Source: an uncultured Clostridia bacterium (GTDB lineage Bacteria; Bacillota; Clostridia; Oscillospirales; CAG-272). Taken from it: a stretch of 64,000 nt of DNA. The notes below the pieces were generated by a model. The model was given only the letters and a program-made list of their open reading frames with translations, did not search any database and was not told where the DNA came from. Below, in pieces: positions 9,109 to 61,570 of this stretch. A program made the translations under genes and the position numbers. Numbering within the stretch: position 1 is the first letter of the stretch; every line of letters starts with the position of its first letter. The stretch lies in the NCBI GenBank assembly GCA_947627475.1, contig CANQWE010000002.1:11990-75989 (forward strand), given 5' to 3'.

Positions 9109-9780
9109 TTACGGGATCATATATCCCGCGTTTTTCTTTGTCACAATAAAATCGGAAAGCCCCACATCCGCCAGCTTGTGCCGCAGGCGGGTCATATTGA
9201 CGGTGAGGGTATTGTCGTCGATAAACGTATCGCTTTCCCAAAGCCTGCGCATAATCGTCTCACGAGAGACGATGCTCCCGCCGTTTTCCATTAGAAGCTG
9301 CAAAATCCGAAATTCATTTTTGGTCAGTACGATTTTATGATTTTGGACGCTTAAAGTGGCATCCGCAAGATTCAGGATGGCACCGCCCCGCTCCAGCAGC
9401 TGGGCAGACGCGCCAAAGGAATAGGTCCGGCGTATCAGCGCCTGGATCTTGGCGCACAGGACAGTAAGATCAAAGGGTTTTGGGATAAAATCGTCCGCCC
9501 CCATATTCATAGCCATGACGATATTCATTTTATCCCCTGCAGAAGACAAAAAGATAATGGGAACGCTGGACAGGCTGCGAATCTGCTGACACCAGTAATA
9601 TCCATTGAAAAAAGGAAGGGAAAGATCCAGCAGCACCAGTTGGGGATCAAATGCGGTGAAGGTTTCCAGCACGTGCTGAAAGTCCCCGGCACACAGCGTT
9701 TCATATCCCCACCGGGAAAGCTGGGTTTCCACTGCTGCGGCAATGGTAGCGTCATCCTCAACGATCAGTATTTTATACAT
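9109..9780 (-). CDS. OmpR-family response regulator (BceR-like)
   Basis: MYKILIVEDD receiver domain plus a winged-helix C-terminus. The start is taken at ATG 9780 rather than TTG 9798. Confidence 0.85.
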   Translation of the reverse strand: MYKILIVEDDATIAAAVETQLSRWGYETLCAGDFQHVLETFTAFDPQLVLLDLSLPFFNGYYWCQQIRSLSSVPIIFLSSAGDKMNIVMAMNMGADDFIPKPFDLTVLCAKIQALIRRTYSFGASAQLLERGGAILNLADATLSVQNHKIVLTKNEFRILQLLMENGGSIVSRETIMRRLWESDTFIDDNTLTVNMTRLRHKLADVGLSDFIVTKKNAGYMIP

Positions 9781-9825
9781 AGCTTGGCAGGCCTCCAAGG
9801 ATAAACTGTATCAATATAATAACAC

Positions 9826-10255
9826 AATCAGTTTGCAAATGCAACAGAAGGTGAAGGTTCCCGCCTTTCAAAAACAGCTTTTCTCTTTCCTCTTGGAAGA
9901 GGAACATCCTTTCCTTTCTCTTAGAAGAGAAACAGGTTCTTTCCTGCTTTCCGTTAGCAGGGGAACGATGGTACTTTTGCCAGACGCGGCAAAAGTACCC
10001 AAAAGCGCTTTTTCGCGGATCGCAACGCGATCCGTGGGGGCGAAGCTGCAAAGCAGCTTCGCTATAGCGTTTGTTTCGTGCAGACTGAAAGTCTGTCTTT
10101 GGACTGCAAGTTTACAGTGCTGTTGCAGTCCCTGCAATGTCTTGCTATGACTATCCACCTTACGTGAAAGTCTGTACAGACTTTGTAACCCTCCTATAAC
10201 GAGGGAGGTGCCCTTTGAGGGGAGGGAGGATGCACTCCCCTTCCCTACGTTAAAT
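9826..10255. repeat. mosaic hairpin-module element, inverted copy
   Basis: Collinear with the reverse complement of 61233-61447. Perfect hairpins at 9970-9999, 10016-10034 and 10040-10062, and an 18-bp palindrome at 10167-10184. Confidence 0.8.
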
Positions 10256-10337
10256 TTCAAAAAATGCCGCCTTTTTATTGAAACGGGAATTGTTTCATGG
10301 TAAAATAAGTGCAGCAATTTATTTGGAGGACAGTAGT

Positions 10338-11048
10338 ATGTTTGCAGATTCTTTTTCCTTTGAAACGTTTGAAGGCACAAAGTGGACGGCCCCTTATCGC
10401 CTGCGTCTGCCGGAAAACTACAGCATCGAAAAAAAATATCCCGTAGTGCTTTATTACCATGCCGCAGGAGAGCGGGGGGACGACAACATCATGCAGCTTG
10501 CTATCGGTCTGCCTGTTGCCATGCAGGATCCGGACAGCCCCCTGTATGACGCCATCATTATCGCACCCCAGTGTCCCAAAGATAAAAAATGGGTAGACAC
10601 TGACTGGACAAAGGGAAACTATCGTGTAGACGACACGCCGGAAACCATTTATATCCAGACAGCACAGGAGTTGCTGGATTATACCCTGAAAAAATACAGC
10701 TGCGACAAATCCAGAATCTACACGATGGGCATTTCCATGGGATCCTTTGCAGTATGGGATACTCTGGCACGGCACGGAGAACGGTTTGCAGCCGCTTTTG
10801 CCTGCTGCGGCGCGGGGGATCCGTCCAAGGCAGAAAAAATGCGGGACATTCCCATCTGGGCGTATCACGGCGCATTGGATGACGAAGTGCCTGCCGACGG
10901 CACCAGAAATATGGTACGAGCCATCCAGGCAGCAGGCGGAAAAAAAATTCATTACACCGAGTTCCCGGATTTAGGACACTGGACCTGGGACAGCGCATAT
11001 TCCCAATACGATGATATCCGGGCAATGTTTCAGGAAAAAAAGTCGTAA
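10338..11048 (+). CDS. alpha/beta hydrolase (esterase/peptidase S9-like)
   Basis: YPVVLYYHAAGERGDD and GISMGS (GxSxG) motifs. GGAGG precedes ATG 10338. The upstream part of the ORF lies in the repeat. Confidence 0.65.
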   Translation: MFADSFSFETFEGTKWTAPYRLRLPENYSIEKKYPVVLYYHAAGERGDDNIMQLAIGLPVAMQDPDSPLYDAIIIAPQCPKDKKWVDTDWTKGNYRVDDTPETIYIQTAQELLDYTLKKYSCDKSRIYTMGISMGSFAVWDTLARHGERFAAAFACCGAGDPSKAEKMRDIPIWAYHGALDDEVPADGTRNMVRAIQAAGGKKIHYTEFPDLGHWTWDSAYSQYDDIRAMFQEKKS

Positions 11049-60332: not shown

Positions 60333-61570
60333 AACAAGCGCCATAGCGAAGCTGGGGAAGTCAGCTTCGCTTCTACGGATCACGACGCAATCCGCAAAAC
60401 GCTCTTTTGGGTACTTTTCCTCAGCGTAGGAAAAGTACCCTCTGTTTTCCTTTGCTTCGGGAGGCAGGAAAGAAACTGCTCCTTTTCCAAAGGAAAGAGA
60501 AAAGGACGTTCCTTTTGTACTGTGACAAAAGGAACCAAAAACACAGAAAAGGGAAGGGGGATTCCCCCTTCCCTTTTCGATCCCTTCCCCTTTGACAAAT
60601 GGGGCAGGGCAAACCTTTCGGTATGCGCTAAGTTTCCAGCAGCTGCAGGATAGATGGAAAGCAAAAAGATATCGTCTGTATAAGACGAGACAAATGCAGT
60701 TTGCAGAAACGAAAAAAGCTTTCCTCTAAAGGGGGGATTGCGAAGTCTATACAGACTTGGCGTGAAGTGGATCAGCAAAGCAGCATTTTGCAGGACCTGC
60801 ACAACAGCACCGTAGTCAAGCAGTCCAAGGACGGACGGAAAGTCTGCAGAAGACAAACGCGATCGCAAAGCCGGGCATCCGGCTTTGCCCTACGGATCGT
60901 TGTGCGATCCGCAAAAAGCATTTTGGGGTACGTGTACTTTGCGCAGCAAAGTACCATTTTGCTTTGGAAAAAAGTACCATCGTCCCCCCTGCTTCGGTAA
61001 GCAGGAAAGAAACTGCTCCTTTTCCAAAGGAAAGAGAAAAGGACGTTCCTTTTGTACTGTGACAAAAGGAACCAAAAACACAGAAAAGGGAAGGGGGATT
61101 CCCCCTTCCCTTTTCGATCCCTTCCCCTTTGACAAATGGGGCAGGGCAAACCTTTCGGTATGCGCTAAGTTTCCAGCAGCTGCAGGATAGATGGAAAGCA
61201 GAAAAATATCGTCTGTCTGAGACAGAGACAAAGAAAGTCTGTACAGACTTTCGCGTAGAGTGGATCACCACGGCAAGACATTGCAGGGTCTGCAACAGCA
61301 CCACAGTCAAGCAGTCCAAGGACAGACGGAAAGTTTGTACAAAACGAACGCGATAGCCAAGCCGGGGATCCGGCTTGGCCCTACGGATCGCGGTGCGATC
61401 CGAAAAAAGCGTTTTTGGGTACTTTTGCCGCGCCTGGCAAAAGTACCATTGTTTCCCCCCTGCTCCCAGAGCAGAAATTCCCCCGTGGAGATGGGAAAAG
61501 TCGATTTTCCCCACCGCTTCAAAGGGAGCCTGTAAGGGAAGTCCTATAGTTTTACAGGTCAAAAAACCTC
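60333..61570. repeat. tandem array (~2.3 units of ~537 bp) of the mosaic hairpin-module element
   Basis: Offset of 537 nt, with 60464-60663 identical to 61001-61200. Flanking modules are diverged but collinear. No credible ORF. Confidence 0.85.

Follow-up and report, generated by a model that had tools for sequence, protein, structure and literature searches.

A dispersed family of modular hairpin repeats in a gut Clostridia genome, examined from its copy between a bceR-like gene and an esterase gene

Described repeat families and the family in this genome

BOX elements of Streptococcus pneumoniae are hairpin-forming intergenic repeats that occur in about 100 copies and are built from modules, boxA-boxB(n)-boxC, in varying number; they are not known to have a transposase of their own. 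The repeats described below resemble them in architecture, as modular, hairpin-forming, dispersed intergenic repeats of a Firmicutes genome. We define "module A" (~230 nt) and "module B" (~300 nt) as the two units delimited by aligning the copies together with their flanks; A and B together span ~530 nt. These modules are larger than those of BOX, and whereas the terminal modules of BOX act like inverted ends, no such ends are seen in A or B.

The REP and BIME sequences of Enterobacteria and Pseudomonas, which are associated with RAYT transposases (REPINs), offer the other close comparison (PMC2817692, PMC3116915, PMC3733652). Like them, the present family consists of abundant, species-specific extragenic palindromic repeats that form composite mosaic clusters, lie mostly between gene ends, keep their stems by paired changes and cause assembly breaks. 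A REP unit, however, is an imperfect palindrome of 20-40 nt with a conserved 5' tag, GTAG or CGTC (PMC3733652), whereas here hairpins and linkers in a fixed succession make up a unit of 300 nt (B) or ~530 nt (A+B), in which the palindromes are fixed parts of the module and carry neither tag (H2 starts with GGTAC, H3 with CGGATC and H4 with GCGAAG). The arrays run head to tail, A-B-A-B, in contrast to BIMEs, which are clusters of REPs in alternating orientation with defined linkers. The host is a Clostridia-type gut bacterium, and its MAG contains no RAYT or Y1 gene.

Bacterial MITEs, including Correia/NEMIS and RUP (reviewed in PMC10969869), are likewise non-coding, non-autonomous in appearance and dispersed, have the potential to form secondary structure and can land near promoters, but neither terminal inverted repeats, nor a target-site duplication, nor a parent IS was found for A or B. 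Derivatives of IS200/IS605 (PATE, omega/reRNA) differ in that the MAG has no TnpA (Y1) or TnpB gene, those of IS110 with bridge RNA in that it has no DEDD recombinase (PF01548 with PF02371), and retrons and group II introns in that it has no RT gene and the element no Rfam intron or retron match. The tests that define REP/RAYT, BIME, MITE, IS200/605, IS110 and retroelement derivatives all came out negative. The best reading is that the family resembles REP/BIME and BOX and is a member of neither. A literature search returned no such repeat family described for gut Clostridia.

Module B between the bceR-like and esterase genes

The window, a stretch of 64,000 nt, contains the copy under study near its left end. 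An earlier note, made from the letters of the window, had described this copy as the third of its kind, inverted relative to a tandem array further along and situated between the divergent BceR-like operon and an esterase gene. Much of that description stood up. Two gapless inverted matches in a repeat search of the window, 10010-10184 with 61234-61408 (175 nt, 76%) and 9960-10013 with 61404-61457 (54 nt, 93%), bear out the collinearity proposed between 9970-10184 and the reverse complement of 61233-61447. The four palindromes listed lie exactly at 9970-9999, 10016-10034, 10040-10062 and 10167-10184, and Pfam domains confirm both flanking genes. The copy is not the third, however, but one of ~60 loci found by BLAST, nhmmer and profiles, and the interval first given for it, 9826-10255, was too wide: matches to that query span its positions 53-360, equivalent to 9878-10185 of the window, while 9846-9877 and 10186-10250, just outside B, are unique in the genome. 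The features of the locus are as follows.

9112..9780, minus strand: bceR-like OmpR-type response regulator gene (Pfam Response_reg and Trans_reg_C), first in a bceRSAB-like operon
9781..9851, minus strand: conserved block upstream of bceR, ending in ...aatgcaacagaagg, which forms the left edge of the variable spacer
9852..9877, plus strand: unique short segment with no second copy in the genome, aligning loosely with the module A end in the conspecific contig L117
9878..10185, plus strand: full-length solo module B, the repeated element, covering positions 2-302 (nhmmer) and 1-308 (BLAST) of the model and missing from the spacers of 8 related species
9878-9961, plus strand: 5' section of B, with short T/C-A/G hairpins, moderate pairing across copies and a start that varies by copy
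9889-9902, plus strand: H0a, cctctt/aagagg (H0a and H0b, 59-72% paired across copies)
9917-9930, plus strand: H0b, tctctt/aagaga
9943-9961, plus strand: H1, cctgct/agcagg, 86% Watson-Crick paired across copies
9970..10062, plus strand: middle section of B, with the three strong palindromes H2-H4
9970-9999, plus strand: H2, ggtacttttgcc/ggcaaaagtacc, varying between copies
10016-10034, plus strand: H3, cggatcgc/gcgatccg, invariant across copies
10040-10062, plus strand: H4, gcgaagctgc/gcagcttcgc, varying between copies
10063..10185, plus strand: 3' section of B, conserved in sequence, with the terminal palindrome aaagtctgtacagacttt at 10167-10184
10186..10246, plus strand: two C-rich/G-rich hairpins, unique in the genome, forming the rest of the variable spacer
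10247..10337, plus strand: conserved block upstream of the esterase gene, kept in 8 related species
10338..11048, plus strand: alpha/beta-hydrolase (esterase) gene (Pfam Peptidase_S9, Esterase and Abhydrolase_2)

Both genes are flanks, outside the repeat element, and module B is placed between, not within, their conserved promoter blocks. The block upstream of bceR is 79-84% identical to its counterparts in six related species up to ~9845-9851, where similarity ends. The bceR promoter presumably lies within it; a consensus promoter scan called no sigma-70 site in 9781..9851, and the candidate TTGCAT-17-TATTAT on the minus strand is our own interpretation. Within the conserved esterase-side block the same kind of scan located a promoter that scored 10/12: TTGAAA at 10278-10283 and, after 17 nt, an extended -10 element, TGnTAAAAT, whose last base is 10306. 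Since the conserved blocks stop at ~9851 and resume at ~10247-10249, B occupies the one stretch of the spacer that varies freely, and the element leaves both promoters intact. The suggestion that it is tolerated in regulatory DNA holds for the divergent promoter region as a whole; within that region the copy sits in a neutral gap between the promoter blocks and not inside either of them.

The remainder of the gap is also filled with hairpin sequence. The segment 9856-9877 is probably what decay has left of the last (3') hairpin of a module A (ggttcc...caaaa). To the right of B are the hairpins ccctcc..ggaggg at 10189-10208 and gaggggag..ctcccctt at 10217-10246, and small C/G hairpins resembling this pair are also found 3' of B at other loci. 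The element, with the A remnant and the two GC hairpins, fills an unconstrained gap and most likely has no specific regulatory role here.

The palindromes in the middle of B are conserved across the family. RNAalifold of the middle section in 26 copies gave -50 kcal/mol, with double changes in 13 of 40 pairs. For H1-H4, 95.3% of the cells were paired, compared with 35-50% when the partners were slid, and the observed paired fraction, number of double-change pairs and covariation score were reached in none of 500 shuffles. H2 and H4 covary, in discrete variants, while H3 is constant. Shuffled controls fold far less stably than either strand of the flagged region (z = -7.7 and -6.9 for the two strands). 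A mutual-information scan of the copies supported local hairpins only. RNAalifold on 37 copies returned no consensus structure for the 3' section (3' 120 nt), and its local palindromes at 10080-10096 and 10101-10131 are perfect in the window copy and 57-73% paired family-wide. Two long-range helices from the single-sequence fold, aagcgct/agcgttt and gtgcagact/agtctgtac, enclosing 80 nt, had no covariation support.

Mispairs of the G.T and A.C types are similarly rare in the core stems, at 2-3.5% each, which is the pattern expected of DNA palindromes. The outer positions of H1 and H3 are G.U-rich on the element's plus strand, a minor point in favor of folding of one strand.

Module B is non-coding. 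The ORFs 9743-10150(+), 9868-10380(-) and 10275-10952(-), called spurious from the outset, have no Pfam match. A first-order Markov control gives a fully open frame in ~10% of cases, compared with 28 of 48 B copies on one strand and 25 of 48 on the other. These frames nevertheless vary from copy to copy and encode no common peptide, so that B was rejected as a gene. Rfam gave no match to the element even at E <= 10; over 9700-10400 the best matches scored 26 bits or less against gathering thresholds of 42-191 bits, and the only matches in the window at gathering score were TPP and lysine riboswitches, both elsewhere.

Copy number, distribution and variation

The family is dispersed through the genome. 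BLAST of 9826-10255 against its own genome (2.13 Mb in 111 contigs) yielded 58 matches and nhmmer 80, and iterated profiles place modules at ~60 loci of that genome. Twenty-two loci lie at contig ends, which explains much of the fragmentation of the assembly; for annotation, the element accounts for the three spurious ORFs and for many contig breaks in assemblies of this species. The copies occur in both orientations, as had been proposed, and in all four gene configurations (14 convergent, 12 co-directional, 9 anti-directional and 7 divergent loci on a crude longest-ORF map). No orientation bias relative to genes was found, nor any replication-strand bias by local GC skew (20 vs 18, with 24 ambiguous).

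Copies of B are 70-88% identical to one another. Self-BLAST found no pair above 92% identity, indicating that there has been no very recent copying. Module A usually stands both before and after B in the same orientation, producing A-B-A-B arrays with a period of ~500-540 nt in which all modules are on one strand. The window includes one array of the same family, identified by repeat search and profiles:

60333..61570 (C2:72304-73497), minus strand: head-to-tail array B-A-B-A-B

In the module A copies of this array, at 60546-60578 and 61083-61115, a perfect 15-bp hairpin is followed by TGTGTTTTT. A third conserved module of ~100 nt, containing ..ccccnnggggcatttttcgccgcggctcgccagaggcgccttgcgtaatgcaaggga.., is found between B and the terminator at five or more loci (C1:12670, C1:116771, C41:3413, C46:14162 and C50:2995), so the family has more than two modules.

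The expansion of the family is restricted to this lineage. BLAST for B found no copy in 40 relatives. A sequence-only covariance model of the B 3' section detected 61 copies here; among 31 congeners it detected one copy in the sister genome G046, one marginal match in G043 and none in the other 29. G046 is the closest complete relative (97% complete, with an esterase protein 91% identical); it has a single copy of module A and, of the B 3' section, one diverged fragment. The family therefore grew at least 45-fold in this lineage, and as part of the reading we favor, the expansion probably followed the split from the closest sampled relatives.

Sites that lack the element are directly observed in these relatives. 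The esterase gene is present in 29 of the 31 congeners. In six species among the closest, bceR adjoins it, with 79-84% identity in each of the two promoter-proximal blocks; contigs of two further relatives have the esterase-side block only, which brings the number of species with that block to eight. The orthologous spacer is ~55 nt in G009 and ~120-135 nt in G001 and G046, where it holds one short H0-type hairpin, and in G003, G042, G041 and G015 (L037, L038, L039 and L040) it holds unrelated GC-rich hairpin repeats; none of these spacers contains B. An ancient local duplication, for which the earlier note had looked to related genomes all carrying the sequence with no other copies, is thus contradicted by the spacers without B and by the many other copies. 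The same note had proposed that orthologous spacers be compared for empty sites and target-site duplications: the empty sites were found, and no duplication was. When the flanks of 33 loci were joined to make one query against G046, both flanks adjoined in 21 cases, 2-167 nt apart, with the element absent.

The GC-rich hairpin repeats in the four spacers, for example caatccctcagtcgac..gtcgacagctccctttacacaagggagcc, belong to a family different from A and B. The spacer between bceR and the esterase gene appears as a recurrent site of landing or accumulation for unrelated hairpin repeats.

Pattern scans of a genome collection of 185,579 species, the JGI metagenomes and IMG/VR found true carriers of the family on two contigs only, both from one sample (ERZ826764). 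These contigs derive from a relative ~91-98% identical to this genome, which has a longer array at the orthologue of C41:2925. The remaining matches, 13 in the genome collection and 15 of 17 in the metagenomes, were rejected as distant homologues; they are single chance matches in unrelated GC-rich genomes. Searches for phage, plasmid and viral similarity gave no matches, and an origin of that kind was rejected on this ground.

Within the species, every conspecific contig that reaches the site carries B, and thus no presence/absence polymorphism was found. These contigs were recovered by exact look-up of the esterase protein; a look-up through pmbA returned the same strain alone. That strain's 2.47-Mb contig (L115; ENA ERZ28758767, contig_8506) is identical to the window across this region. 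A second contig, L116, has B at the same site with 14 differences over 1.96 kb, 10 of them within the 557-nt spacer. A patch of four substitutions at 10129-10138 lies in a run of 24 nt that exactly matches the paralogue at C44:3965-3988, which makes it a short gene-conversion tract. In a third contig, L117, the 3' two-thirds of B are unchanged while the 5' third differs, with another H2 variant and an extra hairpin; the copy is preceded by a module A, at which the contig ends (L117:1-330; ENA ERZ27316974, k141_406677). Genuine recombination could have produced this 5' third, or else it is an assembly chimera at the repeat. Several short-read conspecific contigs stop within B, as expected of a repeat.

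Mosaicism extends across the whole family. Family-wide, distances between copies in one section of B do not correlate with those in the neighboring section (Mantel r = 0.13 and 0.06), indicating that each copy of B is a mosaic. The stem variants that preserve pairing are best seen as exchangeable hairpin alleles, shuffled between copies by gene conversion, rather than as independent compensatory mutations. The earlier note's observation that stems vary and still pair is confirmed by the double changes in H1-H4.

With 61 copies against one and many empty sites, the family shows cleanly, in nature, how a large structured repeat has recently expanded within a single lineage. The combination of no known mobilizing enzyme, visible gene conversion and an oriented preference for terminators makes it suitable for studying the spread of REP-like repeats in Firmicutes, beyond the RAYT-bearing Proteobacteria.

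Spread of the copies

The interval 9878-10185 is a solo, full-length copy of B, from a lineage-specific, non-coding, mosaic hairpin repeat with ~60 intergenic loci, and we consider it probable that it is neutral at this locus. The family as a whole we infer to be selfish or neutral DNA, although the G.U-rich outer stems of H1 and H3 and the depletion of stop codons are beyond what a purely neutral DNA repeat explains. Homologous recombination between copies, together with gene conversion, would keep and reshuffle them, and one-ended copying may carry the repeat to new sites, its anchors being short palindromic modules common to many intergenic regions.

The ends of the copies and their surroundings are informative about such a process. 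B is complete at its 3' end in 45 of 58 copies and at its 5' end in 30 of 58. Terminal inverted repeats are lacking; the two ends of B are unrelated to each other, and A at its start resembles B at its end in no more than a self-palindromic gtctg..cagac core. Nor is any target-site duplication visible at C36:10720/11472, at C32 or at the bceR-esterase locus, where the junctions are clean. One-ended copying would be in keeping with 5' ends that vary and with a family that lacks terminal inverted repeats, target duplications and a recognizable transposase.

A candidate anchor for this copying is a class of stereotyped terminators, AAAAAGAGGGGC..GCCCCTCTTTTT. The genome holds 18 near-identical bidirectional terminators of the form A5-7 GAGGGG(C)-N3-7-(G)CCCCTC T5-7. 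Ten of the 18 have an A or B module no more than 300 nt away, compared with 80 of 2212 long-ORF ends, and the 3' end of the element faces the terminator in all nine non-overlapping cases. The terminators predate the A/B family: they are present at the empty orthologous sites in G046, and the close relatives G046, G009, G001 and G003 have 4-11 each, where a reverse-pattern control had no matches, while a distant congener has none. Homology-seeded copying at shared palindromes is compatible with these data, in which the association with terminators is a correlation.

The stereotyped terminators often have ATC before them; examples are at C1:12793-12822, C32:4128-4155, C41:13544-13572 and C2:65205 (window ~53216). 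They look like an older small repeat family and form the usual neighborhood of A and B modules.

The main rival to the reading of a mosaic repeat spread by recombination is transposition, in which B or A-B would be a non-autonomous element moved in trans by a hairpin-recognizing enzyme and inserted in fixed orientation beside the terminator hairpin, on the model of REPIN/RAYT, IS200/IS605 PATEs, IS110-type hairpin targeting or a MITE. Transposition would readily explain how one lineage gained ~60 copies in a burst at sites that are cleanly empty in its sister, as well as the oriented association with terminators (10 of 18 occupied, nine of nine with the same polarity) and the similar subterminal palindromes (gtctgt.cagac) found where A begins and B ends. 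The enzyme is what fails to appear. Y1_Tnp (PF01797), the TnpB zinc ribbon (PF07282), the reverse transcriptase RVT_1 (PF00078), DEDD_Tnp_IS110 (PF01548) and Transposase_20 (PF02371) had no match in the 95.9%-complete MAG, while control genomes were positive for each, and self-BLAST of the genome revealed no longer element that contains A or B. At 2.13 Mb the MAG is ~0.34 Mb shorter than the same-strain contig, and a transposase could lie in that portion; multi-copy IS elements are frequently left unassembled. The ends argue in the same direction as the gene content, since there are no terminal inverted repeats, the cleanest junctions show no target-site duplication and the 5' ends vary. Copies show no orientation bias relative to GC skew, and the ceiling of 92% identity between copies of B gives no sign of recent movement. 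Taken with the mosaicism, the conversion tract and the oriented terminator association, the ragged 5' ends and the missing inverted repeats and duplications point away from a classical transposon, and we regard transposition as unlikely.

A variant that dispenses with known transposases is likewise unlikely. The A-B unit might be a new type of non-autonomous mobile element that homes in fixed orientation, its target being the bidirectional terminator hairpin AAAAAGAGGGGC-N3-5-GCCCCTCTTTTT and its spread owed either to an unrecognized hairpin-specific enzyme or to one-ended, palindrome-anchored copying by the replication and recombination machinery of the host. If it were true, structured repeats would be able to colonize a genome without a dedicated gene.

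That B is a structured non-coding RNA, with its hairpins selected as RNA, seems improbable. It would be either a multi-copy sRNA or a cassette that acts in cis as a 3'-UTR stabilizer or terminator. H1-H4 are conserved and covary, and the G.U pairs of the outer stems would be C.A mismatches on the opposite strand. At nine loci the element has its 3' end directed toward a bidirectional terminator, and module A has a hairpin that is a strong terminator-like site acting in one direction only, the element's own. Against an RNA, the window copy lies between two diverging promoters with no promoter or terminator predicted inside it, and copies take all orientations relative to neighboring genes. The counts of G.T and A.C in the core stems are symmetric, the 3' 120 nt have no consensus fold and the long-range helices do not covary. 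That the sister species nearly lacks the family speaks against conserved function, and Rfam has no match.

Very improbable indeed is the proposal that the palindromes are operator or architectural protein sites that regulate the bceR and esterase promoters, whether by binding BceR or a nucleoid protein or by absorbing supercoils through cruciform extrusion: the position between divergent promoters and several perfect palindromes of 8-12 bp are in its favor, but related species keep the genes and promoter blocks without the element (the esterase-side block in eight), B occurs at ~60 unrelated loci, mostly at gene 3' ends, and conspecific strains vary within it.

The distribution of the loci along the genome is uneven. 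A "master" copy between inverted arrays on contig C20 was considered and rejected, as the segment in question is the sole one of its kind and is a housekeeping gene, mnmE, encoding MnmE. This gene (C20:12717-14102, minus strand) has arrays of opposite orientation on its two sides. It belongs, together with uvrA, to a dense region orthologous to G046:C8:21-62 kb, in which ~18 of the ~60 loci are packed into ~67 kb on contigs C20, C44 and C41, about five times the density of the large contigs.
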